Origin: an uncultured Candidatus Binatia bacterium
GTDB taxonomy: Bacteria > Desulfobacterota > Binatia > Bin18
DNA length: 64,000 nt
NCBI GenBank assembly: GCA_965200965.1
Contig: OZ241744.1
Span: 224,001 to 288,000, forward strand
Reading direction: 5' to 3'
The position numbers and the translations under genes were made by a program. Below the pieces are notes generated by a model. That model was not told the origin of the DNA. It saw nothing but the letters and a program-made list of their open reading frames with translations, and ran no database searches. The number at the start of each line of letters is the position of its first letter. Position 1 is the first letter of the stretch. Below, piece by piece: positions 44,501 through 62,281 of the stretch.

Positions 44501-45374
44501 AATCGCCCGGGCGGCCTGTGAGCTGCACCCGTCCTGCTATATCGTGCTTGAGTGGCAGCCCGGGCGCGAACTGGAGCACATCGGCCAGCCCGATTTTTTC
44601 CAGGCTGAGTTCAAGAGCAAGGCCGAGTTCGGCTGTGCCCACATTGCTGAGCTGGCCGGTCAGCCGAAGCCGGGAATGGTCTGTTGTGAGGCTGAGTTGG
44701 TGCAGCCGGACTGCGGGCGGGGCGGTGCCGTGGTGGTAGTGAGCAGTGGCTTCGACGCCCAGGGGCGGAATACCTTCGGCCAAGGCGTGCAGGCTCAGCT
44801 GACGGATGTCGACGTCAAGGCCGCTTGGAGTGATATCGAGCCGAGCGTCGAGACGCAGAGCGTTCAACTGACAGCTTTGGTCCCCGCGGCTCAGAGCGAT
44901 CCGCCCATTCTCTATGGTCAGGTTTTCCAGGCTGATGATGAGGCTCGGCGGGTTCCGCGGCCCCTCCTGGGTAGCTGACGAGACGGCTTCGAGCAGCTTG
45001 ACCCCGCCCCCGTCACTCTGGGCTATGCGCATAAACGGTCCGACGAGCGAGATGTCCGAGACCTCCAGCCGCTCCTTGAACAGGGACAGGAGCCGATACC
45101 GGGCGGTCAGCCGGGGAATGTGGATCAAGGTCTCGCCCCGGTGCTCAAGACGGAACTGATGCACAATCAGGGAACCCCACAGCGTGCCTTCAAGTCGCTC
45201 AAAGCTGAACTGTCCGACGAGGCTGGTGTTGAGGATGTCAAGAAGGTGCTGGCGGGCCAGGGTGCGAAACTGCTCAGTGCGCACAAACACCAAGCCGCTT
45301 ACCATGACCAGCCCGAGCAGCAGCCCGAGCAGCAACAGGCTCCGACGCAGGATTGTCCACACGGTCGCCATCAC
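41556..45374 (-). CDS. tamB: Translocation and assembly module TamB (AsmA/DUF490)
   Basis: N-terminal TM anchor, long beta-rich body, C-terminal GTGEAPTLDLRSTPSL...DILALLLFG. Confidence 0.85.
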   Translation of the reverse strand: MMATVWTILRRSLLLLGLLLGLVMVSGLVFVRTEQFRTLARQHLLDILNTSLVGQFSFERLEGTLWGSLIVHQFRLEHRGETLIHIPRLTARYRLLSLFKERLEVSDISLVGPFMRIAQSDGGGVKLLEAVSSATQEGPRNPPSLIISLENLTIENGRIALSRGDQSCQLNALRLDARLDITPSGLDVDIRQLSLHALAEGIPPLGVEATAHYHHGTAPPAVRLHQLSLTTDHSRLRLTGQLSNVGTAELGLALELSLEKIGLADVLQFAPGLPLKHDIAGRVQLTGRPGDLQATLHLKTAGATLDAQAEADLSQQPPRYQGTLRLAHVDLTRLLDTADETLGGVRGLIHGSLRGRGVGTAVSALEAETNLRGERLQLAGVELGTVSVQARLANGTATLSGELTGGLGHATWQGRLALAETPEYSLNFAADRLAAAGHDVISGALKLRGRLQGTGLALPSLNTRVEMTLQPSRLGRLDLTHGRLVARIVGGQVHISEATLLTPDARLTIAGELDTALDHSSRLSYSLQIDRLSPWLGLAGREGSGRLTLEGMAEGRPGNIRTQGKLRAEAVRLAELSLAAAAIDFTATRLGQPQPQASLTIGLSDLQAGLALQTLRGDVQLAPGQSKAGQDHRLHLRLTATQTPERQHRLRAHIVAEPERIVAQLQELSVALPLGTWRLTQAARVHYQAGGIQLDRFALAKHDQPDQQIILRGSLATTGRQDLQLQIQDVSLKELAGLLPRQPRIRGLFSAHVQIAGTAEAPSIAGSTAVREAQIAGQTYQGLSATIHYQDKKARLQFIFHQDENHALHADGSLPVSLGWARGLRAAVLGDLDVGIRSDGLNLASLNAFSGRVADDIAGTLHLDLDASGPVDRPLLTGTFGLKDGRATVKPLGLAVSPISLTGRLSPRHLHITQLTATAGGGSLSGVGLIELADYRPQALDLSFTADGWPAIWTHRYRVEVDGQLTASGLLTAPHLKGHISVRQATLRPELSFLSAQPLHHDETIVVQPGAGAPQPDHSGTDAETARSPAGLNTLALDVTLDLGHTARLQHQSANITVGGGVAVIKKPDEAPYLAGVIQLADGWAGFQGRRFVLNRGTISFAKETRMNPRLDILARYTHDDYVVDAVVGGTGEAPTLDLRSTPSLEQADILALLLFGKPASTLDKGEEIDLQQKAVALASSYAAAKLRQSVSDVLGLDALGIDLSGLDFSGGYIGFGRALTRKTRISATHSIGGEQDQEVAIDYEITPDLDLRTSANSKGSSSADIIWRKRY

Positions 45375-45386
45375 CCAGCAGAGTCC

Positions 45387-47273
45387 TCAGAAGAATTGTC
45401 CCACACTGAAATGCGGCTGCCAGAGATTATCATCAGAGGGCGGGTCAAAGGGGAAGCCCACCTGCAGCTGGATCGGGCCGAAGCGGGTAGCATAGCCAAG
45501 GCCAAAACCGGCGGCAAACCGCAGGGCATCAATCGAGATATCGTAAGCCCGGGCCTCAAGCTGACCGAAATCGACGAACACGGCCCCGCTTAGCGCCTTC
45601 CACACCGGGCGGCGGAGTTCTACCGATCCTTCGATCAGGCTCAGGCCGCCGAGCGGGTCGTCCGAGCGGCTCAGCGGTCCGAGGCGGCGACGACCGTACC
45701 CCCGCACACTTTTCTCGCCGCCGGCGTACAGGCGTTCGGAGAGGGGCAGGTTTGTCACCGGGCCAAAGGCATCGGCCAAGCCGACTTTGAGGCGGCTGGC
45801 CACCACCGTCTGCCAGCCGAGCGCATAGTATGTTTTGGCCTCGGTCGTCAGCGTATAAAAGTGGTAATCCGGGCTGCTGGTTTGCGCAAAGTTGAGCGAC
45901 ACCACGCTGCCCCGTTTGGGGTCCAGCCGGTCTGTGGTGGTGTCCCAGGCCAGTTCCAGGACGGGGCCAGAGAGCAGCCCCTCACGTTCAATGCCGCCGA
46001 GAGCGCGGATCGTTGACGGCGAGATATTATTCAGTCTGGCGAACTCCAGCCGGTAGCCGACAGCCCCGGACAGGTTGGAGGAGAAGCGGTGTTCGAGCCG
46101 GGGCCGAAAGCGGGTGTAGTTCAGCAGAAAGGTCTCTTCGTCTTCCTGGCCCTGGCTGAGGTCGAGAACCAGCCGAGCGCGTTTGGTCAGGAAATGGGGT
46201 TGGACGAGTTGCACCCCCAAGGAGCGGGTGATGGACGAGAATTTCAGCAGCACCGACAGACGCCGCCCGCCGCCAAGCCAGTTCCGGTGCTGCCATTCAA
46301 TATAGCCGCGGAACTCATCCTCAGTGCCATAGCCCAGACCGAGCTTGAAATCTCGTGGTGGGCCTTCCTTGACCCGTACCCGCAGCGGGACCACCCGGGG
46401 CCGGCCGTTGGATTGGGTCGGGGCAATCTGGACGGAATCAAACAGGCCCAAGTCCAGCAGGTTTTGGCGGGTCGCGTTCAGAGGCTGGAGAGAGAACTGC
46501 TGGCCGGGCAGGTAGGTGAAGTCCCGTCTGAGGAGTTGGGGGGCGATGCCTTCCAGACCCTCAATATGGGTCTGGCCGAAAACGGTCGGTGGGCCGGGAC
46601 GAATCCGGTAGCGCAGGTGGGCGGTTCGCTGGTCAAGGAGCAGTTCAGCCGCGCGCCTGACCTCGGTCCAGCCATAGCCGCGGTCAAGAAAAAATGTCTT
46701 GAGTTGGGCTGCGGCCGCCCGGTAGCCGTCCTCGGTAAAAATGTCACCCTGTTTGACTGGCAGGTCGGGGAGCCGGGTATCAGAGGGCGGCGCGTGTTGG
46801 TCTGGTTGGGAGGGCTGTCTATCAAGTTGAATATCCACCCGTCCGACCCGGATCGGCTCCCCCTCGTCAATACGAATACGGAGACTGAGCAGGCCGCCTG
46901 CACCGCGGTCCCAGAGACGTTTTTCCTGGCGGGTCAACTCGTAGTGCAGGGTCGCATGATAATAGCCGTGGGAGCGATACAGACGGGTCAGGCGCTTCAG
47001 ATCAAGGCTAAAGGCGACCGGATCAAACAGGGGGTGGGCGCGCCACGGCGTATACCACGGGCGGGCCTCGGTGGTCAGAGCCGCCCGCAACTCGGCTTTG
47101 GCGAGGCGCGTATGACCGGAAAAGCTCAGCCCGCCCAGCCGCCATTGCCGGGCCGGATCAAGGTCGTCAAGGGTGAGGGCAAAGGCCGGCGGAAACAGCC
47201 CGCCCACCAGCGTCGCCACCAGACAGACCAGCAGCAGCCGTCCCGGTGCTGTACACCCTCTTCGCGGATACAT
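45387..47273 (-). CDS. tamA: Omp85 outer-membrane protein, TamA/BamA family
   Basis: Signal peptide, POTRA repeats, HRNWLGGG, YAGGEKSVRGY, terminal GQFF; adjacent to tamB. Confidence 0.85.
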   Translation of the reverse strand: MYPRRGCTAPGRLLLVCLVATLVGGLFPPAFALTLDDLDPARQWRLGGLSFSGHTRLAKAELRAALTTEARPWYTPWRAHPLFDPVAFSLDLKRLTRLYRSHGYYHATLHYELTRQEKRLWDRGAGGLLSLRIRIDEGEPIRVGRVDIQLDRQPSQPDQHAPPSDTRLPDLPVKQGDIFTEDGYRAAAAQLKTFFLDRGYGWTEVRRAAELLLDQRTAHLRYRIRPGPPTVFGQTHIEGLEGIAPQLLRRDFTYLPGQQFSLQPLNATRQNLLDLGLFDSVQIAPTQSNGRPRVVPLRVRVKEGPPRDFKLGLGYGTEDEFRGYIEWQHRNWLGGGRRLSVLLKFSSITRSLGVQLVQPHFLTKRARLVLDLSQGQEDEETFLLNYTRFRPRLEHRFSSNLSGAVGYRLEFARLNNISPSTIRALGGIEREGLLSGPVLELAWDTTTDRLDPKRGSVVSLNFAQTSSPDYHFYTLTTEAKTYYALGWQTVVASRLKVGLADAFGPVTNLPLSERLYAGGEKSVRGYGRRRLGPLSRSDDPLGGLSLIEGSVELRRPVWKALSGAVFVDFGQLEARAYDISIDALRFAAGFGLGYATRFGPIQLQVGFPFDPPSDDNLWQPHFSVGQFF

Positions 47274-47516
47274 TTGCACCTCTTCATATACCCCGGACGA
47301 GCGTCTGTAAAGCGTGGTCAGGCCCCTCAGGCTTGCGGTCGGCGGGCGGGCTTTTGATAGACAGGACGGGACAAGACAGCCAACCACCATGATTGAGGAG
47401 ACTCATATCTCCGCGGGAAACGCAGAACCCGCCCACCACCAGGCTCCGGTACAGTTGGCGATGGGAGATGCCGGTTGGCTCCGGTTCCTGTTCCTGCTGA
47501 GCGACACCCCCGTTCG

Positions 47517-47735
47517 ATGATCTCCGTATTCTTCCTGCTGTCCCTTGCCCTCTATGCCTACGCCGTAGCCTGCATCTTCGTGCCGCTCTTCATGCTCGGG
47601 GTGCTCGCGTACGGTAAGGTCCCCCTCGTCTACAATCGTCAGGAATTACAGTTCTTGCCACCGTCAGATTTCGTCATTGTCAAATTTCGTGACTATAGCG
47701 TGGTGTACCGCCGCCATAGCGGCGACTCGGGGTAA
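47517..47735 (+). CDS. Small hydrophobic hypothetical protein
   Basis: 72-aa ORF with an N-terminal hydrophobic stretch; no recognisable motif. Confidence 0.3.
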   Translation: MISVFFLLSLALYAYAVACIFVPLFMLGVLAYGKVPLVYNRQELQFLPPSDFVIVKFRDYSVVYRRHSGDSG

Positions 47736-50240
47736 CTACTCGGGGGAGGCCCATTCCACCTCCCAGCCCCGGCCAGCCGCAGTGACCTGCCCGGTGCGGA
47801 GACGCGCCAGAGGGTAGGCGGGCAGCCGCACCGTCGCCAGACACTTGTCAGCAAACCGCGCCGCCTGCTGCACATGCGGCAGGCGGTGCCGCCACCGGTG
47901 GAAGCCGAAATCCAGGGCCGCAAACCCGAAGGGCCGCCGCGCAGCGGTCAGCACCGCCCGGTCCCGGGGGAAGACATGCAGGAAGAAGCGCCCCTGCGTG
48001 TCCGCCCGCTGACACCCCGCTTTGACATAGGTCAGGGTCCGCCCGTCCAGGTAGAGGGCAAAGTCAGAGCGGGCCACCGGCGGGGCCGCCACCGCTGCCC
48101 GGTATGTCGCCTCAAGCAGGTCGGTCGCGGTTACGCCAGCAGCCGACCACGCCAGGGCGACGTGCCAGCGATCCACTCCCTCGGGGACGAACAGGCGGGC
48201 TTCAAGGGTTTGGATCGGATAGGGGGGCAGTGTCCGCCGGATCAGACACGCCCCGTCAACGCGGACCCCGTAATCGGGAAAGATGAAGTTCAGGACCTCA
48301 GTGCCTGGCACTCGACGCCACGCGGGGCGGTCGGCAGCGGCAGCGTCAGCGTCAGCGGGGTCCACGGGCACGACATGGACCACGAAGCGCCCCCGCACAT
48401 CGGCCGGCCGGCAGGGGGCCTTCACCCAGGTCAGGGTGGTCCCCTCCAGGTACAGGTCGAACGCCGAGCGGAGGAGGGGCGGCCCGGCGGTGGTGGCCCG
48501 GTAGAGTTGCTGGTAGCGCTCGACGGTGGCCGCGTCCACCAGGGCCGGGTCGCTTGCGCTCACCGTGAGGATGGTGTTGTTGTAGACTTGGCGGGTGTAG
48601 ACAACGGGTGCGAAGGGGCGATCAAGGCTGTCTCTCCACCCAGTGAACACATGAGAGGTCACATGAAAGTCTCCCTCCTCCTCCATTCCGTCGGCGAAGA
48701 CAATGCGACGCCGGGCTGCCTTGGGAAGGATGTCCCAGTTCCTTATGTGACGGCCGGTGGGATGGCCATTGGGACGGCCCGACGCCAGAGAGACAGGTGA
48801 AGTGGGATAGCGCTGGAGCAGATATTCCAGCCCCTCCCGGTACACCGTCCCCCAGTAGTCCATGTCATACTGCCCACGCAGGTACTCGGGCGTACTCCGG
48901 TCCACCAGCCGGTTGAAATAGAGGTGCTGGTAGGGATGAAGCCCAACCATTTCGATGACCACGCCAGCCAGACCAGCTACGGCCAGGCCATAGACACCGG
49001 CCCGCAGGGCTGGCCAGCGGCATACGCCAGCCAGCCGCCGCAGACCGGCCACGGCCAGCAGACACAGCGGGGCGTAGAGGAAATACATCTGCCGCCAGTT
49101 GTGGTAGACGTTGGCATTGAGGACGATGACGGCCCCAACGGGCAGGAGCACACAGGCCACGAGCAGCCCCTCAAAGCGGGTGGTGGGGTTGCGGAGCCAC
49201 TCGCCGGGGTGGGTCAGAGTCTGCCGGAGCACACCAGCCGCCCCGATGAGGCTCAGCAGCAGCACGCCCGGCGGGGTGGTGATGGCCAGCCAGGTCGGAA
49301 TGTAGTGCGCCGGAAGGTCCGGCCAGCGGATGACCTCGCCTTGAAAGAGCATAGTAGGACGGTGAGAGTGCTGGGAGAGAACTGCAATCGCGTCAAGCAG
49401 CTCCAGCGGATTGCCCCACAGATAGGGCGAGACCGCATACAGCGTCAAGACACTGGCCAGCCCGAACACCCCCAGCGTCCTCCCCACCTGCCGCCGTTCC
49501 GCCCGATTTCCCGCTCGCACCCAATCCACTACCCGCATCACCATCACCGCCACAAACAATCCCCCGCCCATGATGCGTAAGTTCGTTGCGACCCCCACCC
49601 CTACCCCACACAGCGCATACGCCCCCACCCCCCCCCGCTGCCACGCCCGATGAATCAGGGCCAGACAGCCCAGGAAGGCCACCAGGAAGGGGATGTCCTT
49701 GGTGTTGACAAACGAGTGGGCATACAGCCGGGGATGGAGGACGAAGAGGCCGAGGGCCAGCAGGGCCAGCCAGCGGCTGCCGAACAGCCGGGCGGCCAGC
49801 CAGGCCGCGCCCCCGCCGCCGGCCAGAAAGCAGAGGTGGGTGAGCAGATGGCGGCTCAAGTAGATGGCGCGGCTGTCGGTGAGGCCGAGCAGCCGCTCAA
49901 CCAGGACCAACGGCACTTCGAAGACAATGCCGTAGTAGCGGTTGTGGGGGGGACCGGGGGGGCGCAGGGTCTCGGTGTCGCCCAGCGCATAGGCGATTGC
50001 CGCCTGGCCGATCCCGTGTTGCTCCTTCTCGTCCCACCCCACCCCGTAATCGTCAAGGACGGCCAGGCCCACCACGGCCAGCACCGCCAGGGCCAGCAGG
50101 ACACTGTGGGCGGCCACGAAGGCCACCGCCGCCGTGGACCAGCGGCCCACGGACCGGGGGACAGAGGTCACGATGAGCCTGCCCAGGTGGGCGGCCATGG
50201 AGGTGCCGCCAGCCGTGCCCCGAATGTCAGCCGGCCTCAA
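47736..50240 (-). CDS. GT-C fold (ArnT/PMT-like) membrane glycosyltransferase, copy 1
   Basis: DDYGVGWDE after TM1, multiple TM segments, HPRLYAHSF.NTKD, WRQMYF, duplicated C-terminal domain. Confidence 0.8.
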   Translation of the reverse strand: MRPADIRGTAGGTSMAAHLGRLIVTSVPRSVGRWSTAAVAFVAAHSVLLALAVLAVVGLAVLDDYGVGWDEKEQHGIGQAAIAYALGDTETLRPPGPPHNRYYGIVFEVPLVLVERLLGLTDSRAIYLSRHLLTHLCFLAGGGGAAWLAARLFGSRWLALLALGLFVLHPRLYAHSFVNTKDIPFLVAFLGCLALIHRAWQRGGVGAYALCGVGVGVATNLRIMGGGLFVAVMVMRVVDWVRAGNRAERRQVGRTLGVFGLASVLTLYAVSPYLWGNPLELLDAIAVLSQHSHRPTMLFQGEVIRWPDLPAHYIPTWLAITTPPGVLLLSLIGAAGVLRQTLTHPGEWLRNPTTRFEGLLVACVLLPVGAVIVLNANVYHNWRQMYFLYAPLCLLAVAGLRRLAGVCRWPALRAGVYGLAVAGLAGVVIEMVGLHPYQHLYFNRLVDRSTPEYLRGQYDMDYWGTVYREGLEYLLQRYPTSPVSLASGRPNGHPTGRHIRNWDILPKAARRRIVFADGMEEEGDFHVTSHVFTGWRDSLDRPFAPVVYTRQVYNNTILTVSASDPALVDAATVERYQQLYRATTAGPPLLRSAFDLYLEGTTLTWVKAPCRPADVRGRFVVHVVPVDPADADAAAADRPAWRRVPGTEVLNFIFPDYGVRVDGACLIRRTLPPYPIQTLEARLFVPEGVDRWHVALAWSAAGVTATDLLEATYRAAVAAPPVARSDFALYLDGRTLTYVKAGCQRADTQGRFFLHVFPRDRAVLTAARRPFGFAALDFGFHRWRHRLPHVQQAARFADKCLATVRLPAYPLARLRTGQVTAAGRGWEVEWASPE

Positions 50241-52783
50241 GAGCGTGCTCCCGATGAGGCCGGAACGGGCCAGCCCACCTGATCGGCCACAGGAAATTCA
50301 ACTGCCCAGACCGGCTTCTCGCTGGCGACCTGCCCGGTGCGGAGCCGTGCCAGAGGATAGGCGGGCAGCCGCACCGTCGCCAGACACTTGTCAGCAAACC
50401 GCGCCGCCTGCTGCACATGCGGCAGGCGGTGCCGCCACCGGTGGAAGCTGAAATCCAGGACCGCAAACCCGAAGGGCCGCCGCGCAGCGGCCAGCACGGC
50501 CCGGTCCCGGGGGAAGACATGCAGGAAGAAGCGCCCCTGCGTGTCCGCCCGCTGACACCCCTCTTTGACATAGGTCAGGGTCCGCCCGTCCAGGTAGAGG
50601 GCAAAGTCAGAGCGGGCCACCGGCGGGGCCGCCACCGCTGCCCGGTATGTCGCCTCAAGCAGGTCGGTCGCGCGCACGCCAGCAGGTGCCAAGTCAATGC
50701 TTACTCTCCAAAGATCGGGTCCCCCGGGGACGAACAGGCGGGCTTCAAGGGTTTGGATCGGATAGGGGGGCAGTGTCCGCCGGATCAGACACGCCCCGTC
50801 AACGCGGACCCCGTAATCGGGAAAGATGAAGTTCAGGACCTCAGTGCCTGGCGTTCGCCGCCACGCGGGGCGGTCGGCAGCGGCAGCGTCAGCGGGGTCC
50901 ACGGGCACGACATGGACCACGAAGCGCCCCCGCACATCGGCCGGCCGGCAGGGGGCCTTCACCCAGGTCAGGGTGGTCCCGTCCAGGTACAGGTCGAACG
51001 CCGAGCGGAGGAGGGGCGGCCCGGCGGTGGTGGCCCGGTAGAGTTGCCGGTAGCGCTCGGCGGTGGCCGCATCCACCAGAGCGGGGTCGCTCGCGCTCAC
51101 CGTGAGGATGGTGTTGTTGTAGACTTGGCGGGTGTAGACAATGGGTGCGAAGGGGTGATCAAAGCGGTCTCCCCACCCAGTGAACACATGAGAGGTCACA
51201 TAAAAGTCCCCCTCCTCCTCCATTCCGTCGGCGAAGACAATGCGACGCCGGGCTGCCTTGGGCAGGATACCCCGGTTCATGGTGTACTGGATGCCGGGAC
51301 GGCCGCTGGGACGGCTCGGCACTAGAGAGACGGGTGAGGCGGGATAGCGCTGAAGCAGATATTCCAGCCCCTCCCGGTACGTCTGTGAGCGGTACGCTTC
51401 GTAGTACTGCCCACGCAGGTACTCGGGCGTGTTCCGGTCCACCAGCCAGTTGAAATAGACATACTGATGAGGATGAATCCCAACCATTTCGATGACCACG
51501 CCAGCCAGGCCAGCCATGGCCAGGCCATAGACACCGGCCCGCAGGGCCGGCCAGCGGCACACGCCAGCCAGCCGCCGCAGACCAGCCACAGCCAGCAGAC
51601 ACAGCGGGGCGTAGAGGAAATACATCTGCCGCCAGCCGTTGTGGACATTGGCATTGAGGACGATGACGGCCCCAACGGGCAGGAGCACGCAGGCCACGAG
51701 CAGGCCCTCAAAGCGGGTGGTGGGGTTGCGGAGCAGCTCGCCGGGGTGGGTCAGAGTCCGCCAGAGCACGCCAGCCGCCCCGATGAGGCTCAGCAGCAGC
51801 ACGCCCGGCGGGGTGGTGATGGCCAGCCAGGTCGGAATGTAGTGCGCCGGAATAGCCGGCCAGTGGATGAGTTCGCCTTGAAAGAGCATAGTAGGACGGT
51901 GAGGGTGCTGGGAGAGAACCGTGAATGTTTCGACCACCTCCAGGGGATTGCTCCACAGATGGGGCGAGACCGCATACAGCGTCAAGACACTGGCCAGCCC
52001 GAACACCCCCAGCGTCCTCCCCACCTGCCGCCGTTCCGCCCGATTTCCCGCCCGCACCCAATCCACCACCCGCATCACCATCACCGCCACAAACAATCCC
52101 CCACCCATGATGCGTAAGTTCGTTGCGACCCCCACCCCCACCCCACACAGCGCATACGCCCCCACCCCCCCCCGTTGCCACGCCCGGTGAATCAGGGCCA
52201 GACAGCCCAGGAAGGCCACCAGGAAGGGGATGTCCTTGGTGTTGAAAAACGAGTGGGCATACAGCCGGGGATGGAGGACGAAGAGGCCGAGGGCCAGCAG
52301 GGCCAGCCAGCGGCTGCCGAACAACCGGGCGGCCAGCCAGGCCGCGCCCCCGCCGCCGGCCAGAAAGCAGAGGTGGGTGAGGAGATGGCGGCTCAAGTAG
52401 ATGGCGCGGCTGTCGGTGAGACCCAGCAGCCGCTCAACCAGCACCAGCGGTACTTCGAAGACAACGCCGTAGTAGCGGTCATAGGGAGGGAGACCGGGGG
52501 GCGCGTGCAGGGTCTCGGTGTCGCCTAGCGCATAGGCGATTGCCGCCTGGGTAATTCGGCGTTGGGCTGTCTCGTCCCACCCCACCCCGTAATCGTCAAG
52601 AACGGCCAAGCCCACCACGGCCAGCACCGCCAGGGCCAGCAGGACACTGTGGCGGGCCACGAAGGCCACCGCCGCCGTGGACCAGCGGCCCACGGACCGG
52701 GGGACAGAGGTCACGATGAGCCTGCCCAGGTGGGCGGCCATGGAGGTGCCGCCAGCCGTGCCCCGAATGTCAGCCGGCCTCAA
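50237..52783 (-). CDS. GT-C membrane glycosyltransferase, copy 2
   Basis: Same motifs as copy 1. Confidence 0.8.
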   Translation of the reverse strand: MRPADIRGTAGGTSMAAHLGRLIVTSVPRSVGRWSTAAVAFVARHSVLLALAVLAVVGLAVLDDYGVGWDETAQRRITQAAIAYALGDTETLHAPPGLPPYDRYYGVVFEVPLVLVERLLGLTDSRAIYLSRHLLTHLCFLAGGGGAAWLAARLFGSRWLALLALGLFVLHPRLYAHSFFNTKDIPFLVAFLGCLALIHRAWQRGGVGAYALCGVGVGVATNLRIMGGGLFVAVMVMRVVDWVRAGNRAERRQVGRTLGVFGLASVLTLYAVSPHLWSNPLEVVETFTVLSQHPHRPTMLFQGELIHWPAIPAHYIPTWLAITTPPGVLLLSLIGAAGVLWRTLTHPGELLRNPTTRFEGLLVACVLLPVGAVIVLNANVHNGWRQMYFLYAPLCLLAVAGLRRLAGVCRWPALRAGVYGLAMAGLAGVVIEMVGIHPHQYVYFNWLVDRNTPEYLRGQYYEAYRSQTYREGLEYLLQRYPASPVSLVPSRPSGRPGIQYTMNRGILPKAARRRIVFADGMEEEGDFYVTSHVFTGWGDRFDHPFAPIVYTRQVYNNTILTVSASDPALVDAATAERYRQLYRATTAGPPLLRSAFDLYLDGTTLTWVKAPCRPADVRGRFVVHVVPVDPADAAAADRPAWRRTPGTEVLNFIFPDYGVRVDGACLIRRTLPPYPIQTLEARLFVPGGPDLWRVSIDLAPAGVRATDLLEATYRAAVAAPPVARSDFALYLDGRTLTYVKEGCQRADTQGRFFLHVFPRDRAVLAAARRPFGFAVLDFSFHRWRHRLPHVQQAARFADKCLATVRLPAYPLARLRTGQVASEKPVWAVEFPVADQVGWPVPASSGARS

Positions 52784-55326
52784 GAGCGTGCTCCCGATGA
52801 GGCCGGAACGGGCCAGCCCACCTGATCGGCCACAGGAAATTCAACTGCCCAGACCGGCTTCTCGCTGGCGACCTGCCCGGTGCGGAGCCGTGCCAGAGGA
52901 TAGGCGGGCAGCCGCACCGTCGCCAGACACTTGTCAGCAAACCGCGCCGCCTGCTGCACATGCGGCAGGCGGTGCCGCCACCGGTGGAAGCTGAAATCCA
53001 GGACCGCAAACCCGAAGGGCCGCCGCGCAGCGGCCAGCACGGCCCGGTCCCGGGGGAAGACATGCAGGAAGAAGCGCCCCTGCGTGTCCGCCCGCTGACA
53101 CCCCTCTTTGACATAGGTCAGGGTCCGCCCGTCCAGGTAGAGGGCAAAGTCAGAGCGGGCCACCGGCGGGGCCGCCACCGCTGCCCGGTATGTCGCCTCA
53201 AGCAGGTCGGTCGCGCGCACGCCAGCAGGTGCCAAGTCAATGCTTACTCTCCAAAGATCGGGTCCCCCGGGGACGAACAGGCGGGCTTCAAGGGTTTGGA
53301 TCGGATAGGGGGGCAGTGTCCGCCGGATCAGACACGCCCCGTCAACGCGGACCCCGTAATCGGGAAAGATGAAGTTCAGGACCTCAGTGCCTGGCGTTCG
53401 CCGCCACGCGGGGCGGTTGGCAGCGTCAGCGGGGTTCACGGGCACGACATGGACCACGAAGCGCCCCCGCACATCGGCCGGCCGGCAGGGGGCCTTCACC
53501 CAGCTCAAGGTGGTCCCGTCCAGGTACAGGTCGAACGCCGAGCGGAGGAGGGGCGGCCCGGCGGTGGTGGCCCGGTAGAGTTGCCGGTAGCGCTCGGCGG
53601 TGGCCGCATCCACCAGGGCCGGGTCGATCGCGCTCACCGTGAGGATGGTGTTGTTGTAGACTTGGCGGGTGTAGACAATGGGTGCGAAGGGGTGATCAAA
53701 GCGGTCAAGCCACGCGCTGAACATGTGATTGGTCACATAAAAGTCCCCCTCCTCCTCCATTCCGTCGGCGAAGACGATACGGTTCCGGTCCGCCTTGGGA
53801 AGGATGCCCCGGTTCCTTATATAATGGCCGGCGGGGCGGGCATTGGGACGGCCCGGTGCCAGAGAGACGGGTGAGACGGGTTGGCGCTGGAGCAGATATT
53901 CCAGCCCCTCCCGGTACGTTGTCCCCCAGTAGTCCATGTCATACTGCCCACGCAGGTACTCGGGCGTACTCCGGTCCACCAGCCGGTTGAAATAGAGGTG
54001 CTGGTAGGGATGAAGCCCGACCATTTCGATGACCACGCCAGCCAAGCCAGCCACGGCTAGGCCATAGACACCGGCCCGCAGGGCGGGCCAGCGGCACACG
54101 CCAGCCAGCCGCCGCAGACCGGCCACGGCCAGCAGACACAGCGGGGCGTAGAGGAAATACATCTGCCGCCAGCCATTATAGACATTGGCATTGAGGACGA
54201 TGACGACCCCAACGGGCAGGAGCACGCAGGCCACGAGCAGGCCCTCAAAGCGGGTGGTGGGGTTGCGGAGCCACTCGCCGGGGTGGGTCAGAGTCTGCCA
54301 GAGCACACCAGCCGCCCCGATGAGGCTCAGCAGCAGCACGCCCGGCGGGGTGGTGATGGCCAGCCAAGTCGGAATGTAGTGGGCCGGAATGGCCGGCCAG
54401 TGCACGACCTCGCCTTGAAAGAGCCTAGAACCCATGTGAGGATACTGGGAGAAAACCGTAAACGTTTCGACCACCTCCAAGGGATTGCTCCACAGATGGG
54501 GCGAGACCGCATACAGCGTCAAGACACCGGCCAGCCCGAACACCCCCAGCGTCCTCCCCACCTGCCGCCGTTCCGCCCGACTCCCCGCTCGCACCCAATC
54601 CACCACCCGCATCACCATCACCGCCACAAACAATCCCCCACCCATGATGCGTAAGTTCGTTGCGACCCCCACCCCCACCCCACACAGCGCATACGCCCCC
54701 ACCCCCCCCCGCTGCCACGCCCGGTGAATCAGGGCCAGACAGCCCAGGAAGGCCACCAGGAAGGGGATGTCCTTGGTGTTGACAAACGAGTGGGCATACA
54801 GCCGGGGATGGAGGACGAAGAGGCCGAGGGCCAGCAGGGCCAGCCAGCGGCTGCCGAACAGCCGGGCGGCCAGCCAGGCCGCCCCCCCGCCGCCCGCCAG
54901 AAAGCAGAGGTGGGTGAGGAGATGGCGGCTCAAGTAGATGGCGCGGCTGTCGGTGAGACCCAGCAGCCGCTCAACCAGCACCAGCGGCACTTCGAAGACA
55001 ACGCCGTAGTAGCGGGTGTTGGCATGGACGGGGGCCAGCAGGGTCTCGGTGTCGCCCAGCATGTAGTTGACCGCCGCCTGGGCAATTCGGCGCTGCATTG
55101 TCTCGTCCCACGCCACCCCGTAATCGTCAAGGACGGCAAGGCCCACCACGGCCAGAACCGTCAGGGCCAGCAGGACACTGTGGGCGGCCACGAAGGCCAC
55201 AGCCGCCGTGCGCCAGCGGCCCACGGACCGGGGGACGGAGGTCACGATGATCCTGCCCAGGTGGGCGGCCATGGAGGTGCCGCCAGCCGGCTCGGCAGCC
55301 GTACCCCGAATGTCGGCGGGCCTCAA
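52780..55326 (-). CDS. GT-C membrane glycosyltransferase, copy 3
   Basis: Same motifs; DDYGVAWDE. Confidence 0.8.
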   Translation of the reverse strand: MRPADIRGTAAEPAGGTSMAAHLGRIIVTSVPRSVGRWRTAAVAFVAAHSVLLALTVLAVVGLAVLDDYGVAWDETMQRRIAQAAVNYMLGDTETLLAPVHANTRYYGVVFEVPLVLVERLLGLTDSRAIYLSRHLLTHLCFLAGGGGAAWLAARLFGSRWLALLALGLFVLHPRLYAHSFVNTKDIPFLVAFLGCLALIHRAWQRGGVGAYALCGVGVGVATNLRIMGGGLFVAVMVMRVVDWVRAGSRAERRQVGRTLGVFGLAGVLTLYAVSPHLWSNPLEVVETFTVFSQYPHMGSRLFQGEVVHWPAIPAHYIPTWLAITTPPGVLLLSLIGAAGVLWQTLTHPGEWLRNPTTRFEGLLVACVLLPVGVVIVLNANVYNGWRQMYFLYAPLCLLAVAGLRRLAGVCRWPALRAGVYGLAVAGLAGVVIEMVGLHPYQHLYFNRLVDRSTPEYLRGQYDMDYWGTTYREGLEYLLQRQPVSPVSLAPGRPNARPAGHYIRNRGILPKADRNRIVFADGMEEEGDFYVTNHMFSAWLDRFDHPFAPIVYTRQVYNNTILTVSAIDPALVDAATAERYRQLYRATTAGPPLLRSAFDLYLDGTTLSWVKAPCRPADVRGRFVVHVVPVNPADAANRPAWRRTPGTEVLNFIFPDYGVRVDGACLIRRTLPPYPIQTLEARLFVPGGPDLWRVSIDLAPAGVRATDLLEATYRAAVAAPPVARSDFALYLDGRTLTYVKEGCQRADTQGRFFLHVFPRDRAVLAAARRPFGFAVLDFSFHRWRHRLPHVQQAARFADKCLATVRLPAYPLARLRTGQVASEKPVWAVEFPVADQVGWPVPASSGARS

Positions 55327-57800
55327 GAGCGTGCTCCCGATGAGGCTGGAACGGGCCAGCTCACCTGATCGGCCACAGGAAATTCAACTGCCCAGATCGG
55401 CTTCTCGCTGGCGACCTGCCCGGTGCGGAGCCGTGCCAGAGGATAGGCGGGCAGCCGCACCGTCGCCAGACACTTGTCAGCAAACCGCGCCGCCTGCTGC
55501 ACATGCGGCATGTAGTGCCGCCACCAGTCAAAACCAAAATCCAGGACCGCAAACCCGGCTGGCCGCCGTGCAGCGGTCAGCACGGCCCGGTCCCGGGGGA
55601 AGACATGCAGGAAGAAGCGCCCCTGCGTGTCCGCCCGCTGACACCCCGCTTTGACATAGGTCAGGGTCCGCCCCTCCAGGTACAGGGCAAAGTCAGAGCG
55701 GGCCACCGGCGGGGTCGCCACCGCTGCCCGGTATGTCGCCTCAAGCAGGTCGGTCGCACGCACGCCAGCAGCCGACCACGCCAGGGCGACATGCCAGCGA
55801 TCCACGCCCCCGGGGGTGATCAGGCGGGCTTCAAGGGTTTGGATCGCATAAGGGGGAAGCGGGCACCGGATCAGACACGCCCCGTCAAGGCGGACCCCGT
55901 AATCGGAAAAGCCGAAGTTCAGGATTTCAATGCCTGGCCCCGACCGCCACGCAGGGCGGTCGGCAGCGGCAGCGGGGTCCACGGGCACGACATAGACCAC
56001 GAAGCGCCCCCGCATGTCGGCCGGACGGCAGGGCACCTTCACCCAACTCAAGGTGGCCCCCTCCAGGTACAGGTCAAACGCCGAGCGGAGGAGGGGTGGC
56101 TTGGCGGTGGTGGCCCGGTAGAGTTGCCGGTAGCGCTCGGCGGTGGCCGCATCCACCAGGGCCGGATCGCTCGCGCTCACCGTGAGGATGGTGTTGTTGT
56201 AGACTTGACGGGTGTAGACAAGGGGTGCGAAGGGGAGATCACGGCTCTTGTCCCACGGGCTGAACATGTGATCGGTCACATAAAAGTCCCCCTCCTCCTC
56301 CATTCCGTCGGCGAAGACAATGCGACGCCGGTCCGCCTTGGGAAGGCTACCCCAGTTCCGTATTTGATAGGCGGTGGGACGGCCGCTGGAATGGCCCGGC
56401 ACCAGGGAGACGGGTGAGGCGGGATAGCGCTGGAGCAGATATTCCAGCCCCTCCCGGTACGCCGTCCCCCAGCGTCCCTCGTCATACTGCCCACGCAGGT
56501 ACTCGGGCGTGTGCCGGTCCACCAGCCGGTTGAAATAGAGGTGCTGGTAGGGATGAAGCCCCACCATTTCGATGACCACGCCAGCCAGGCCAGCTACGGC
56601 CAAGCCATAGACACCGACCCGCAGGGCCGGCCAGCGGCACACGCCAGCCAGCCGTCGCAGACCGGCCACGGCCAGCAGACACAACGGAGCGTAGAGGAAA
56701 TACATGTGCCGCCAGTTGTTATAGACATTGGCATTGAGGATGATGACGGCCCCAACGGGCAGGAGCACGCAGGCCACGAGCAGGCCCTCAAAGCGGGTGG
56801 TGGGGTTACGGAGCCACTCGCCGGGGTGGGTCAGAGTCTGCCGGAGCACACCAGCCGCCCCGATGAGGCTCAGCAGCAGCACGCCCGGCGGGGTGGTGAT
56901 GGCCAGCCAAGTCGGAATGTAGTGGGCCGGAATGGCCGGCCAGTGAATTGCTTCGCCTTGAAAGAGCATAGTAGGACGGTGAGAGTGCTGGGAGAGAACT
57001 GCAATCGCGTCAAGCAGCTCCAGTGGATTGCCCCACAGATAGGGCGAGACCGTATACAGCGTCAAGACACTGGCCAGCCCGAACACCCCTAGCGTCCTCC
57101 CCACCTGCCGCCGTTCCGCCCGATTTCCCGCTCGCACCCAATCCACCACCCGCCCCCCCACCACCGCCACAAACAATCCCCCGCCCATGATGCGTAAGTT
57201 CGTTGCGACCCCCACCCCCACCCCACACAGCGCATACGCCCCCACCCCCCCCCGCTGCCACGCCCGGTGAATCAGGGCCAGACAGCCCAGGAAGGCCACC
57301 AGGAAGGGAATGTCCTTGGTGTTGAAAAACGAGTGGGCATACAGCCGGGGATGGAGCACGAAGAGGCCGAGGGCCAGCAGGGCCAGCCAGCGGCTGCCGA
57401 ACAGCCGGGAGGCCAGCCAGGCCGCGCCCCCGCCGCCGGCCAGAAAGCAGAGGTGGGTGAGCAGATGGCGGCTCAAGTAGATGGCGCGGCTGTCGGTGAG
57501 ACCCAGCAGCCGCTCAACCAGCACCAGCGGCACTTCGAAGACAACGCCGTAGTAGCGGTCGGAGGGGGGACCGGGGGGGCGCAGGGTCTCGGTGTCGCCC
57601 AGCGCATAGGCGATTGCCGTCTGGGCAATTTGGTGCTGGGCTGTCTCGTCCCACGCCACCCCGTAATCGTCAAGGACGGCCATGCCCACCACGACCAGGA
57701 CGGCCAGGGCCAGCGGGATACTGTGGGCGGCCACGAAGGCCACCGCCGCCGTGCACCAGCGGCCCACGGACCGGGGGACAGAGGGACGCCCGCTTGTCAT
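55323..57800 (-). CDS. GT-C membrane glycosyltransferase, copy 4
   Basis: Same motifs; MTSGRP-type N-terminus. Confidence 0.8.
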   Translation of the reverse strand: MTSGRPSVPRSVGRWCTAAVAFVAAHSIPLALAVLVVVGMAVLDDYGVAWDETAQHQIAQTAIAYALGDTETLRPPGPPSDRYYGVVFEVPLVLVERLLGLTDSRAIYLSRHLLTHLCFLAGGGGAAWLASRLFGSRWLALLALGLFVLHPRLYAHSFFNTKDIPFLVAFLGCLALIHRAWQRGGVGAYALCGVGVGVATNLRIMGGGLFVAVVGGRVVDWVRAGNRAERRQVGRTLGVFGLASVLTLYTVSPYLWGNPLELLDAIAVLSQHSHRPTMLFQGEAIHWPAIPAHYIPTWLAITTPPGVLLLSLIGAAGVLRQTLTHPGEWLRNPTTRFEGLLVACVLLPVGAVIILNANVYNNWRHMYFLYAPLCLLAVAGLRRLAGVCRWPALRVGVYGLAVAGLAGVVIEMVGLHPYQHLYFNRLVDRHTPEYLRGQYDEGRWGTAYREGLEYLLQRYPASPVSLVPGHSSGRPTAYQIRNWGSLPKADRRRIVFADGMEEEGDFYVTDHMFSPWDKSRDLPFAPLVYTRQVYNNTILTVSASDPALVDAATAERYRQLYRATTAKPPLLRSAFDLYLEGATLSWVKVPCRPADMRGRFVVYVVPVDPAAAADRPAWRSGPGIEILNFGFSDYGVRLDGACLIRCPLPPYAIQTLEARLITPGGVDRWHVALAWSAAGVRATDLLEATYRAAVATPPVARSDFALYLEGRTLTYVKAGCQRADTQGRFFLHVFPRDRAVLTAARRPAGFAVLDFGFDWWRHYMPHVQQAARFADKCLATVRLPAYPLARLRTGQVASEKPIWAVEFPVADQVSWPVPASSGARS

Positions 57801-60148
57801 TGAGAGACTCCCGGCAGGGGCCGCCCAGCCCCGGCTCGCTCCGGTAATGCCACGTCCATCTCCCAGCCCCGGCCAGCCTCAGTGACCTGCCCCGTGCGGA
57901 GCCGCACCGGAGGATAGGCCGGCAGCCGCAGCGTCGCCAGACACCTGTCAGCAAACCGCGCCGCCTGCTGCACAGGCGACATGTGGTGCCGCCACCGTTG
58001 GAAGCCGAAATCCAGGACAGCAAACCCGAAGGGACGCTGAGTAGCAGCCAGTACTGGCGAGGCCGCCACCACCGCCCGGTACGTCGCCTGAAGCAGGTCG
58101 GTCGCGCGCACGCCAGCAGGTACCAAGTCAATGGTTACTCTCCAAAGATCGGGTCCCCCGGGGACATGCAGGCGGGCTTCAAGGGCGTGGATCGGATAGG
58201 GGGGCAGTGTCCGCCGGATCAGACACGCCCCGTCAACGCGGACCCCGTAATCGGAAAAGTCGAAACGCAGGATCTCACGGCCTGACTCCTGCAGCCACGC
58301 GGGGCGGTCGGCAGCGTCAGCGGGGTCCACGGGCACGACCTCGACCGCGAAGCGCCCCCGCACATCGGCCGGCCGGCAGGGGGCCTTCACCCAGGTCAGG
58401 GTGGTCCCCTCTAGGTACAGGTCGAACGCCGAGCGAAGGAGGGGCGGCCCGGCGGTGGTGGCCCGGTAGAGTTGCCGGTAGCGCTCGACGGTGGCCGTGT
58501 CCACCACGGCCGGGTCGATCGCGCTCACCGTGAGGATGGTGTTGTTGTAGACTTGGCGGGTGTAGACAACGGGTGCGAAGGGGCGATCAAAGCGGTCTCC
58601 CCACCCAGTGAACGCACGAGAGGTCACATAAAAGTCCCCCTCCTCCTCCATTCCGTCGGCGTAGACAATGCGACGCCGGGCTGCCTTGGCAAGAATGTCC
58701 CGGTTCCTTACTTGATAGCCGGTGGGACGGCCGCTGGGACGGTCCGGCACTAGAGAGATGGGTGAGGCGGGATAGTGCTGGAGCAGATATTCCAGCCCCT
58801 CCCGGTACGCCGTCTCCCAATAGTCCATCTGGTACTGCCCACGCAGGTACTCGGGCGTACTCCGGTCCACCAGCCGGTTGAAATAGAGGTACTGATGGGG
58901 ATGAATCCCAACCATTTCGATGACCACGCCAGCCAGGCCAGCCACGGCCAGGCCATAGACACCGGCCCGCAGGGCCGGCCAGCGGCACACGCCAGCCAGC
59001 CGCCGCAGACCGGCCACGGCCAGCAGACACAGCGGGGCGTAGAGGAAATACATCTGCCGCCAGCCGCCGTAGACGCTGGCATTGAGGACGATGACGGCCC
59101 CAACGGGTAGGAGCACACAGGCCACAAGCAGGCCCTCAAAACGGGTGGTGGGGTTGCGGAGCAACTCGCCAGGGTGGGTCAGCCCCCGCCGGAGCACGCC
59201 AGCCGCCCCGATGAGGCTCAGCAGCAGCACGCCCGGCGGGGTGGTGATGGCCAGCCAGGTCGGAATGTAGTGCGCCGGAATGGCCGGCCAGCGGATAACC
59301 TCGCCTTGAAAGAGCATAGTAGGACGGATGGGGTGCTGGGAGAGGACTGCAATCGCGTCAAGCAGCTCCAGCGGATTGCCCCACAGATAGGGCGAGACCG
59401 CATACAGCGTCAAGACACTGGCCAGCCCGAACACCCCCAGCGTCCTCCCCACCTGCCGCCGTTCCGCCCGACTCCCCGCCCGCACCCAATCCACTACCCG
59501 CATCACCATCACCGCCACAAACAATCCCCCGCCCATGATGCGTAAGTTCGTTGCGACCCCCACCCCCACCCCACACAGCGCATACGCCCCCACCCCCCCC
59601 CGCTGCCACGCCCGGTGAATCAGGGCCAGACAGCCCAGGAAGGCCACCAGGAAGGGGATGTCCTTGGTGTTGAAAAACGAGTGGGCATACAGCCGGGGAT
59701 GGAGCACGAAGAGGCCGAGGGCCAGCAGGGCCAGCCAGCGGCTGCCGAACAGCCGGGAGGCCAGCCAGGCCGCACCCCCGCCGCCAGCCAGAAAGCACAG
59801 GTGGGTGAGCAGATGGCGGCTCAAGTGGATAGCACGGCTGTCGGTGAGACCCAGCAGCCGCTCAACCAGGACCAGCGGCACTTCGAAGACAACGCCGTAG
59901 TAGCGGTTGTGGGGGGGACTGGGGGGGCGCAGGGTCTCGGTCTCGCCCAGCGCATAGGCGATTGCCGCTTGGCCAATCCCACGTTGATACTCCTCGTCCG
60001 GCCCCACCCCGTAATCATCAAGGACGGCTAGGCCCACCACGGCCAGCACCGCCAGGGCCAGCAGGACACTGTGGCGGGCCACGAAGGCCACCGCCGCCGT
60101 GCCCCAGCCGGCCACGGACCGGGGAACGGAGGGACGCCCGCTGGTCAT
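57797..60148 (-). CDS. GT-C membrane glycosyltransferase, copy 5 (~41-aa in-frame deletion in the second C-terminal domain)
   Basis: DDYGVGPDE; AASPVLAATQRPF replaces the longer segment seen in the other copies. Confidence 0.8.
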   Translation of the reverse strand: MTSGRPSVPRSVAGWGTAAVAFVARHSVLLALAVLAVVGLAVLDDYGVGPDEEYQRGIGQAAIAYALGETETLRPPSPPHNRYYGVVFEVPLVLVERLLGLTDSRAIHLSRHLLTHLCFLAGGGGAAWLASRLFGSRWLALLALGLFVLHPRLYAHSFFNTKDIPFLVAFLGCLALIHRAWQRGGVGAYALCGVGVGVATNLRIMGGGLFVAVMVMRVVDWVRAGSRAERRQVGRTLGVFGLASVLTLYAVSPYLWGNPLELLDAIAVLSQHPIRPTMLFQGEVIRWPAIPAHYIPTWLAITTPPGVLLLSLIGAAGVLRRGLTHPGELLRNPTTRFEGLLVACVLLPVGAVIVLNASVYGGWRQMYFLYAPLCLLAVAGLRRLAGVCRWPALRAGVYGLAVAGLAGVVIEMVGIHPHQYLYFNRLVDRSTPEYLRGQYQMDYWETAYREGLEYLLQHYPASPISLVPDRPSGRPTGYQVRNRDILAKAARRRIVYADGMEEEGDFYVTSRAFTGWGDRFDRPFAPVVYTRQVYNNTILTVSAIDPAVVDTATVERYRQLYRATTAGPPLLRSAFDLYLEGTTLTWVKAPCRPADVRGRFAVEVVPVDPADAADRPAWLQESGREILRFDFSDYGVRVDGACLIRRTLPPYPIHALEARLHVPGGPDLWRVTIDLVPAGVRATDLLQATYRAVVAASPVLAATQRPFGFAVLDFGFQRWRHHMSPVQQAARFADRCLATLRLPAYPPVRLRTGQVTEAGRGWEMDVALPERAGAGRPLPGVSQ

Positions 60149-62281
60149 TGAGGGACTCCCGGCAGGGGCCGCCCCGCCCCGCCTCGCTCCGGCAACGCCA
60201 CGTCCACCGCCCAGCCCCCGCCCGCCTCAGCGACCTGCCCGGTGCGGAGACGCGCCAGAGGATAGGAGGGCAGTTGTACCGTCGCCAGACACTTGTCAGC
60301 AAACCGCGCCGCCTGCTGTACATGCGAAATGTCATGCCGCCACCAGTCAAAACCGAAATCCAGGACCGCAAACCCCAAGGACCGCCGCGCAGCGGCCAGC
60401 ACCCCCCGGTCCCGGGGGAAGACCTCCAGGAAGAAGCGCCCCCGCGTGTCCGCCGGCTGACACCCCGCTTTGACATACGTCAGGGTCCGCCCCTCCAGGT
60501 ACAGGGCAAAGGCAGAGCGGGCCACCGGCGGGGCCGCCACCACCGCCCGGTACCGCGCCTCAAGCAGGTCGGTCGCACGCACGCCAGCAGCCGACCACGC
60601 CAGGGCAACGTGCCAGCGATCCACGCCATCGGGGGCGACCAGGCGGGCTTCAAGCGTTTGGATCGCATAGGGAGGCAGCGGGGGCCGGAGCAGACACGTC
60701 CCGTCAAAGTGGACCCCGTAATCGAAAAAGTCGAAATGCAGGATTTCAATGCCTGGCCCCGGCCGCCACCCGGGGCGGTCGGCAGCGGCAGCGGGGTCCA
60801 CGGGCAGGACATAGACCACGAAGCGCCCCCGCACATCGTCCACGCGGCAGGGGGCCTTCGCCCAGCCCAAGGTGGCCCCGTCCAGGTACAGGTCGAACTC
60901 TGAGCGGAGGAGAGGCGGCCCGGCGGTGGTGGCCCGGTAGAGTTGCCGGTAGCGCTCGGCGGTGGCCGCCAGCCGGTTGAAATAGAGGTGCTGGTAGGGA
61001 TGAAGCCCAACCATTTCGATGACCACGCCAGCCAGGCCAGCTACGGCCAGGCCATAGACACCGGCCCGCAGGGCCGGCCAGCGGCACACGCCGACCAGCC
61101 GCCGCAGACCGGCCACGGCCAGCAGACACAACGGGGCGTAGAGGAAATACATGTGCCGCCAGCCGTCGTAGACATTGGCATTGAGGACGATGACGGCCCC
61201 AACGGGCAGGAGCACACAGGCCACGAGCAGCCCCTCAAAGCGGATGGTGGGGTTGCGGAGCAACTCGCCGGGGTGCGTCAGAGTCTGCCAGAGCACACCA
61301 GCCGCCCCGATGAGGCTCAGCAGCAGCACGCCCGGCGGGGTGGTAATGGCCAGCCAGGTCGGAATGTAATGCGCCGGAAGGTCCGGCCAGCGGATGACCT
61401 CGCCTTGAAAGAGCATAGGAGGACGGCGAGGGTGCTGGGAGAGGACTGCAATCGCGTCAAGCAACTCCAAGGGATTGCCCCACAGATAGGGCGAGACCGC
61501 ATACAGCGTCAAGACACTGGCCAGCCCGAACACCCCCAGCGTCCTCCCCACCTGCCGCCGCTCCGCCCGACTCCCCGCCCGCACCCAATCCACCACCCGC
61601 ATCACCACCACCGCCACAAACAATCCCCCGCCCATGATGCGTAAGTTCGTTGCGACCCCCACCCCCACCCCACACAGCGCATACGCCCCCCCCCCCCCGC
61701 TGCCACGCCCGGTGAATCAGGGCCAGACAGCCCAGGAAGGCCACCAGGAAGGGAATGTCCTTGGCGTTGAAAAACGAGTGGGCATACAGCCGGGGATGGA
61801 GGACGAAGAGGCCGAGGGCCAGCAGGGCCAGCCAGCGGCTGCCGAACAACCGGGAGGCCAGCCAAGCCGCGCCCCCACCGCCGGCCAGAAAGCAGAGGTG
61901 GGTGAGGAGATGGCGGCTCAAGTAGATGGCGCGGCTGTCGGTGAGACCCAGCAGCCGCTCAACCAGGACCAGCGGCACTTCGAAGACAACGCCGTAGTAG
62001 CGGTTGTGGAGGGGACCGGTGTCGCGCAGGGTCTCGGTGTCGCCCAGCGCATAGGCGATTGCCGCTTGGCCTCTCCCACGTTGCGACCCCACGTTCCACG
62101 CCACCCCGTTCCTATATTCCCGATCCCCGTCCCACAACACCCCGTAATCGTCAAGAACGGCCAAGCCCACCACGGCCAGCACCGCCAGGGCCAGCAGGAC
62201 ACTGTGGCGGGCCACGAAGGCCACCGCCGCCGTGCCCCAGCCGGCCACGGACCGGGGAACGGAGGGACGCCCGCTGGTCAT
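60145..62281 (-). pseudogene. GT-C glycosyltransferase copy 6, frameshifted at a G13 tract and internally deleted
   Basis: C13 at 61686-61698 versus C5-A-C9 in intact copies; two ORF halves; YFNRL joined directly to AATAERY. Confidence 0.8.

Follow-up and report, generated by a model that had tools for sequence, protein, structure and literature searches.

The 64,000-nucleotide stretch analysed here (the window; positions 224,001 to 288,000 of contig OZ241744.1, assembly GCA_965200965.1) comes from an uncultured Candidatus Binatia bacterium and carries a tandem array of closely similar genes for predicted membrane glycosyltransferases of the GT-C/PMT_2 type. The locus raises the question of whether these genes exchange sequence with one another and, if so, what that exchange might serve. 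We are highly confident that conversion among the copies is real and continuing. As to the whole account, we lean towards a conversion patch in a recombining family of predicted GT-C enzymes, in which selection keeps the substrate-facing loops different and the decoration of a surface glycan shifts. The genome (G000 below), a single contig of 3,620,516 bp, contains 26 copies of the family in two arrays of 13 each, lying 841 kb apart: array A at 271.7–305.6 kb and array B at 1131.7–1165.2 kb. Mean DNA identity is 90% inside A, 91% inside B and 90% between the two. Copies are numbered in the order of transcription, and the window contains A13 to A07, all on the complementary strand.

The final copy of array A (A13, 834 aa, 47736–50240) is preceded in transcription by A12 (848 aa, 50237–52783) and A11 (848 aa, 52780–55326), and an exact tract of 763 bp occurs twice across these three genes. 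One occurrence (50112–50874) comprises the 3' end of A12, the junction and the 5' end of A13; the other (52655–53417) comprises the 3' end of A11, the junction and the 5' end of A12. A preliminary description had pointed to this identity at an offset of 2543 bp, spanning a gene junction while the gene middles differ, and it was right in both respects. There are zero mismatches over the 763 bp, with mismatches at 50110/50111 and 50875, and the tract covers the last 211 codons, the overlapping stop and start, and the first ~43 codons, the C-terminal 211 residues of A11 being those of A12; outside it the units diverge by ~8%. The second-longest exact repeat in 47000–64000 measures 172 bp. A11 and A12 agree at 279 consecutive polymorphic sites, against a permutation mean of 31, and their longest identical run extends over 625 columns, against 90–168 in 12 simulations on a single tree with patchy rates. 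The same description had proposed that unequal crossover or gene conversion shuffles modules. The shuffling stands, and so does conversion for this tract, but a single unequal crossover as its source does not, as it would have made the full 2543-bp period identical. The 5' two-thirds of A12 are ~8% distant from both neighbours and lie closest to other copies, so that gene conversion or a double crossover suits the tract. A separate observation concerns read depth: in metagenome runs X1 to X4, exact pieces of the tract (searched over 49980–50940) occur at about 1x to 13x the depth of the flank, differing by run; this hints weakly at populations with different numbers of module copies, depth not being equivalent to copy number.

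Recombination is not confined to this tract. The pairwise homoplasy index (PHI) test gave z = -27 for 19 of the 26 copies (the seven omitted are heavily deleted, truncated or terminal in position), z = -7.5 for the membrane part of all 26 and z = -9 for the window's five full copies, compared with -2.2 to +1.8 in 12 simulations without recombination on one tree with patchy rates; patchiness of rates as the source of the signal is ruled out by these simulations. Bonferroni-significant tracts were found in 48 of the 325 copy pairs, with A11/A12 ranking first. In approximately unbiased (AU) tests each of five segments rejected the trees of the other four as well as the whole-gene tree, a result that is supporting only, these tests being biased by construction towards each segment's own tree. 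No single tree thus fits all segments, and the recombination proposed in the preliminary description is borne out by the PHI statistics, the tract tests, the mutually rejecting segment trees and the proteins of a second strain (below). Its claim that two pairs of sequence blocks (LEVVETF/LELLDA and GGPDLWRV/VDRWHVAL) assort independently needs amendment: no one tree can accommodate their distribution, yet the association between them is positive (2/1/1/20 among the 24 of 26 copies that could be scored; Fisher p = 0.03). Three of the four combinations occur inside the window and the fourth only in B09 of array B.

Exchange also reaches further than had been envisaged, extending between arrays 841 kb apart. 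The longest exact repeat of the family, 869 bp, links A03 and B10 over 841.5 kb, and the nearest neighbours of successive alignment windows are distributed over both arrays, 44% of them in the other array and with no single recipient. Adjacent copies as favoured donors found weak support (10% of nearest neighbours versus 7% expected), and loss of mismatch repair or RecA was rejected as a candidate cause, MutS-family and recA genes being present. In silent-cassette systems of the vlsE/pilE type, truncated silent donors feed one expression site. The conversion tracts, the hypervariable outward loops described below and the failure to find a sigma-70-like promoter in 47300–64000 would all suit such antigenic variation, in which most copies serve as donors for one expressed locus. 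We nevertheless consider this most implausible here, with 20 of the 26 copies full-length and joined by overlapping stop and start codons, putative catalytic residues intact and no common recipient among the nearest neighbours.

The gene junctions add a direction to this exchange. The preliminary description had distinguished two junction types, ASSGARS/MRPADIRG (type 1) and LPGVSQ/MTSGRP (type 2), and had noted that its copy 4 combines the start of one with the end of the other. Both types are indeed present in the window, and A10 (825 aa, 55323–57800) has an MTSGRP start with an ASSGARS end. Type 1 occurs at A01>A02, A10>A11 (55247–55374), A11>A12 (52716–52831) and A12>A13 (50173–50288), all read from the complementary strand. 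It corresponds to the boundary behind array B, where B13 ends and a single-copy glycosyltransferase gene begins, the latter contributing its first ~35 codons, with a deletion between two 8-base repeats; the match to this boundary, recognizable at A12>A13, is longest at A10>A11 (97 bp at 91%). Type 2 is represented by A09>A10 (57797–57845, same strand), and the tail of this junction recurs as the end of a broken GtrB/ArnC/PgfS-like gene that lies immediately upstream of B01. By these matches both junction types appear to originate at the flanks of array B, type 1 clearly so, and DNA was therefore probably transferred from array B into array A. The array A junctions of a congener, G007, are of a different type, and the type-1 motif had no match in JGI metagenome contigs.

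A second single-contig assembly of the species (3,603,827 bp) encodes 27 family proteins, and the comparison with it concerns proteins only. Eighteen were paired with G000 copies by best identity; the other nine, being fragments, products of split genes or without a clear partner, were omitted. Among the 220 substitutions in these orthologue pairs, 185 yield a residue that is found, in the same five-residue context, in another G000 copy, where 38.8 would be expected from random single-base changes at the same sites (at all sites the expectation is 5.4%), although functional constraint could raise this figure. Some of the changes come in blocks: from its DDY motif onwards, the B10 counterpart is identical to A03 for 40 residues. 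Faster divergence of the arrays between strains was not shown: their orthologues are ~1.5% apart, and in another member of the species TamB has diverged to the same degree, which leaves the pattern of the differences as the only informative feature. For four of the second strain's proteins no G000 partner exceeds 91%, and B05 and B06 stand alone in their clusters, which suggests gain and loss of copies between strains.

The second assembly also bears on whether the tract was produced by assembly or polishing, with reads of neighbouring copies mixed to give both the tract and the paralogue-matching differences. Over their final 211 residues, the counterparts of A11 and A12 are the same but for one position, a difference private to that assembly, and both counterparts carry an Ala-to-Thr change relative to G000, which on the protein sequences fits re-homogenisation after the strains split. 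Recurrence of the tract together with a common substitution therefore speaks against an artefact of one assembly, and assembler homogenisation, which the preliminary description had named as a possible refutation, does not account for it. The copies are, to be sure, ~90% identical, and no metagenome contig examined spans the tract. Every copy, moreover, has a G9-T-G5 run that is a pure G run in A08, B11 and B13, where it shifts the frame, and in B01, which stays in frame; the second strain's A08 counterpart is in frame through it, and the collapsed run could be phase variation or homopolymer error. Against this, the tract lies in the variable C-terminal region, outside the most similar membrane region, the congener shows the same mosaic pattern, and exact pieces of the tract are present in four public runs. 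We regard an artefact as very improbable.

Genome G007 has about 50 copies at both corresponding loci: 21 at the array A locus, between the same Omp85-type gene and a gene judged by eye to be pheS-like, and no fewer than 29 at that of array B, in which the assembly breaks. A tree built from 76 intact proteins places the 23 copies of G000 and the 42 of G007 in separate clades, with the two arrays intermixed within each. Protein identity averages 87.5% within G000 and 80% within G007 but 62.5% between them, TamB being 85% identical. The copies thus group by species although both loci, with matching flanks, are common to both, which is concerted evolution: homogenisation is species-specific at conserved loci. 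PHI gave z = -35 for 39 copies of G007, and a 799-bp exact tract is found there. In the class as a whole, 13 of 301 genomes match the family at E <= 1e-30. Genomes G014 and G101 have 13 and 12 copies, and Dehalococcoidia and Azotimanducaceae genomes have a single copy at each locus examined.

What the genes encode is predicted from domain, fold and motifs, on all of which the family belongs with the GT-C/PMT_2 enzymes. The five full copies in the window match PF13231 (PMT_2) with 27.9–30.9 bits against a cut-off of 26.1. An AlphaFold2 model (mean predicted local distance difference test score, pLDDT, 83.7) has 11 helices with long first and fourth extracytoplasmic loops (EL1 and EL4), and A12 would consist of this 11-helix membrane domain, an extracytoplasmic domain and the repeats R1 and R2. 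Foldseek gave 20 matches at E <= 0.001, each of them a GT-C enzyme or a complex containing one (ArnT at E 1e-5), and the structural alignment to Pmt gave Z 24.9 and a root-mean-square deviation of 3.9 over 379 residues. The predicted fold, the long EL1 and EL4, an Asp in EL1, an Asp before the fourth transmembrane helix (TM4) and an Arg before TM10 are all as in PMT_2/ArnT GT-C enzymes (PF13231; ArnT 5EZM/5F15, Pmt1-Pmt2 6P25, AglB/STT3), the roles of these residues being described in PMC7801869. A profile of 75 sequences found nothing in the PDB at E <= 1, and no NCBIfam family matched, ArnT included at E <= 0.1. In structural alignments the family shares 14–16% identity with ArnT and 10–16% with solved GT-C members, from which it also differs in its C-terminal beta-sandwich repeats and in having 26–50 near-identical tandem copies rather than one or few.

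According to PMC7801869, the EL1 Asp of GT-C enzymes is catalytic, the pre-TM4 Asp binds the acceptor and the TM10 Arg binds the lipid phosphate, while EL1, EL2 and EL4 form the acceptor site. The candidate equivalents are matched by position in the predicted topology and by that source, rather than by residue-level superposition. Asp70 of A12 (52574–52576, complementary strand) lies in the first extracytoplasmic loop, is present in all 59 intact array copies of both species and in 74 of 75 homologues, and is likely to be catalytic on this modelled equivalence. Asp184 (52232–52234, same strand), just before predicted TM4 at the position of ArnT D158, is likewise found in 59/59 array copies and in 73/75 homologues, and Arg385 at TM10 in 57/59 and 69/75.

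The tail repeat R is a predicted beta-sandwich of ~125 residues with two cysteines (model pLDDT 94). In A12 it occurs as R1 (50675–51073, complementary strand; ~130 aa, two Cys) and as R2 (50279–50668, same strand), a predicted immunoglobulin (Ig)-like sandwich with an invariant Cys pair. The number of R1 copies per gene ranges from 1 to 4 across the family, and these changes are probably better explained by unequal exchange. Searches for the 32 members revealed no Pfam family and Foldseek nothing at E <= 0.001, the best Z of 7.8 being among Ig/FN3/CBM-like sandwiches, and so no function follows for the domain. Three other large GT-C-type membrane proteins end in one R each (G000:C1:790079-794962 and 1126425-1128572). 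With R being an Ig-like sandwich in 1–4 (+1) copies with variable surfaces, one may ask whether the proteins are surface binders, the membrane domain an anchor and the variable loops and R repeats the parts that bind ligands of host or phage. This we hold to be improbable: Asp70, Asp184 and mostly Arg385 are conserved, R also terminates those other membrane enzymes, and the organism is a diderm (it has TamA/TamB), in which the loops of an inner-membrane protein would face the periplasm.

If the copies are enzymes, the question becomes whether their loops differ for a reason. Pairwise ratios of nonsynonymous to synonymous polymorphism (pN/pS) are 0.19 in the helices of G000 (20 copies) and 0.39 in those of G007 (39 copies), and 0.66 and 0.73, respectively, outside the membrane, with the reservation that pairs are not independent and that recombination lies outside the model. 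The membrane helices are under strong purifying selection. Beside the invariant Asp70, positions 69, 72 and 73 (W69, T72 and A73 in A12) are hypervariable, taking 5–7 or more residues in both species. Variable columns coincide between the species (rho 0.50; 32 in common versus 7.7 expected), and the columns that are variable in G000 have a pN/pS of 1.58 in G007 (bootstrap 1.21–2.11). Diversifying selection on the loops is likely, but not settled.

Several genes in the genome would fit a role in glycan decoration. Array B is surrounded by Wzy_C, WcaJ-type, GT1/GT4, SGNH-like and carbamoyltransferase genes, and a full-length GtrB/PgfS-like gene at 625 kb is a candidate donor synthase. In the same cluster, three similar tandem SGNH/GDSL-like genes (G000 1117–1121 kb) form a smaller paralogue array. 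The mechanism we propose would start from homologous recombination between ~90% identical units, presumably of the RecA type (recA is present), which, to judge by the observed pattern, copies stretches tens to hundreds of bases long both inside an array and from one array to the other. Conversion would homogenise the membrane core in each lineage and recombine loop variants into new enzymes, while unequal crossover would alter the number of genes and of R repeats. The copies of an array, probably co-expressed as operons, would yield enzymes that move a sugar in the periplasm from an undecaprenyl-phosphate donor, made by the intact GtrB-like protein, to a surface polysaccharide, loop sequence and R number setting the acceptor or the position. 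Recognition by phage or host would be the selective force.

A number of observations weigh against this account. Tested in reverse, columns variable in G007 are neutral in G000 (pN/pS 1.08, 0.85–1.43), and no whole loop has a pN/pS significantly above 1, so relaxed constraint explains much of the loop pattern. Six of the 26 copies are damaged: the tails of A09, B02 and B12 are altered or absent, and A08, B11 and B13 are frameshifted in the one G run. Closed genomes of the same genus had no match to the family, which makes it dispensable. The structural matches are divided among GT-C enzymes that modify proteins, lipid A or glycans and do not fix donor or acceptor. The GtrB-like gene beside array B is broken, and a search for the gtrA flippase (PF04138) found no match in this 99.3% complete genome, whereas the control search was positive in 8 of 14 genomes.

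The main rival draws on several of these points. It holds that the gene was amplified for dosage or without adaptive cause, that conversion follows automatically wherever tandem repeats are ~90% identical, that the loops are weakly constrained and that all copies do the same job. The extramembrane pN/pS values below or near 1, the neutral reverse test, a synonymous diversity that is likewise raised in the variable regions, the damaged copies, the relatives without the family and the other repeat-rich expansions in the genome all agree with it. Dosage or neutral expansion would leave unexplained the many states of the residues beside an invariant Asp70 in both species and the coincidence of variable columns across species with a pN/pS of 1.58 in G007. 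Nor would it lead one to expect that none of the 26 copies is identical to another despite strong homogenisation, or that arrays taking up 1.9% of the 3.6-Mb genome are retained mostly intact. We judge it rather unlikely, and continue to prefer selection acting on the loops of a recombining enzyme family.

The remaining copies of the window are A09 (783 aa, 57797–60148), whose R2 has an in-frame deletion, A08 (60145–62281), with its G-run frameshift at about 61685–61700 and an internal deletion, and A07 (62278–64000), which extends past the window end, array A reaching genome position 305.6 kb. A08 and B11 (G000:C1:1135841-1137986), broken copies of different arrays, are 96% identical, with the same insertion in EL1 and the same large deletion inside the gene. 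The broken GtrB/ArnC/PgfS-like gene directly upstream of array B is located at G000:C1:1165173-1165571, and a shorter relic, seemingly of the same gene, lies at the corresponding place in G007. The downstream flank of array A holds an Omp85/POTRA TamA-like gene (45387–47390) and a TamB-like gene (41556–45374), both on the complementary strand. Downstream of tamB are genes for a 703-aa protein without a Pfam or NCBIfam match (39243–41354) and for a 1086-aa protein with weak AAA/STAND NTPase matches (35801–39061). Other repeat-rich genes occur at G000:C1:1493-1503 kb, 2849-2870 kb, 1658-1666 kb and 1054-1059 kb; judged by eye from the translations, they include four tandem Gly/Ser-repeat proteins, large secreted adhesin-like proteins, three TonB-receptor-like genes and an ankyrin-repeat protein. 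Four runs catalogued as sponge metagenomes carry 32–42% of the sampled genome words, and a contig from one run equals the array flank over 445 bases with 0 differences; the bacterium is likely to be sponge-dwelling. No RNA dataset was listed among those carrying these words, a result that is neutral as to expression.

Our literature search, from whose coverage subscription journals were mostly absent, found no description of this family. Glycosyltransferase arrays of trypanosomatids reportedly show species-specific homogenisation, conversion tracts and birth and death of copies, as here; they belong, however, to eukaryotic parasites and encode soluble UDP-sugar enzymes, as against a bacterial membrane-enzyme family. 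FutA and FutB of Helicobacter pylori have an enzyme fold that differs from GT-C. Like the present family they are paralogous surface-glycan transferases whose C-terminal repeat number varies among strains, but they are two genes with 7-residue repeats, as opposed to dozens of genes with folded repeats of ~125 residues (PMC5358919). In Salmonella, 1–4 dispersed, phage-associated gtrABC operons occur, the GtrC families of which can share <18% identity, and recombination has been mapped in gtrA/gtrB (PMC3688519). The present arrays resemble gtrABC in recombination across gene boundaries and in a predicted GT-C-type modifier next to a GtrB-like gene, although here that gene is only a broken relic; a broken gtrB beside intact gtrC genes is on record in Salmonella as well (PMC3688519). 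Unlike gtrABC, they consist of 26 tandem copies, ~90% identical in DNA, whose recombination takes place inside the transferase gene, and gtrA was not found in the genome. The family works in a similar way to gtrABC and FutA/FutB but is a member of neither.

Bacteria are known to vary their surface glycans through a few transferases that are phase-variable or swapped horizontally. An ensemble of 26–50 recombining membrane transferases, occupying about 2% of a genome, represents another scale, and short-read assemblies would fragment such arrays, as they are fragmented in the metagenome runs examined. We raise as a tentative possibility that the arrays are a combinatorial generator of glycan decoration, in which the enzymes are varied instead of the antigen. 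Dozens of co-expressed transferases with one core, reshuffled acceptor loops and differing R number would then give a sponge symbiont a strain-specific surface pattern under selection by phage or host. If the copies do not differ in specificity, the family is a clear case of bacterial concerted evolution whose direction is readable from its junctions. If they do, it would amount to a natural library in which the choice of donor and acceptor can be related to GT-C loop sequence, and would offer a testable handle on how sponge symbionts evade phages or host recognition.

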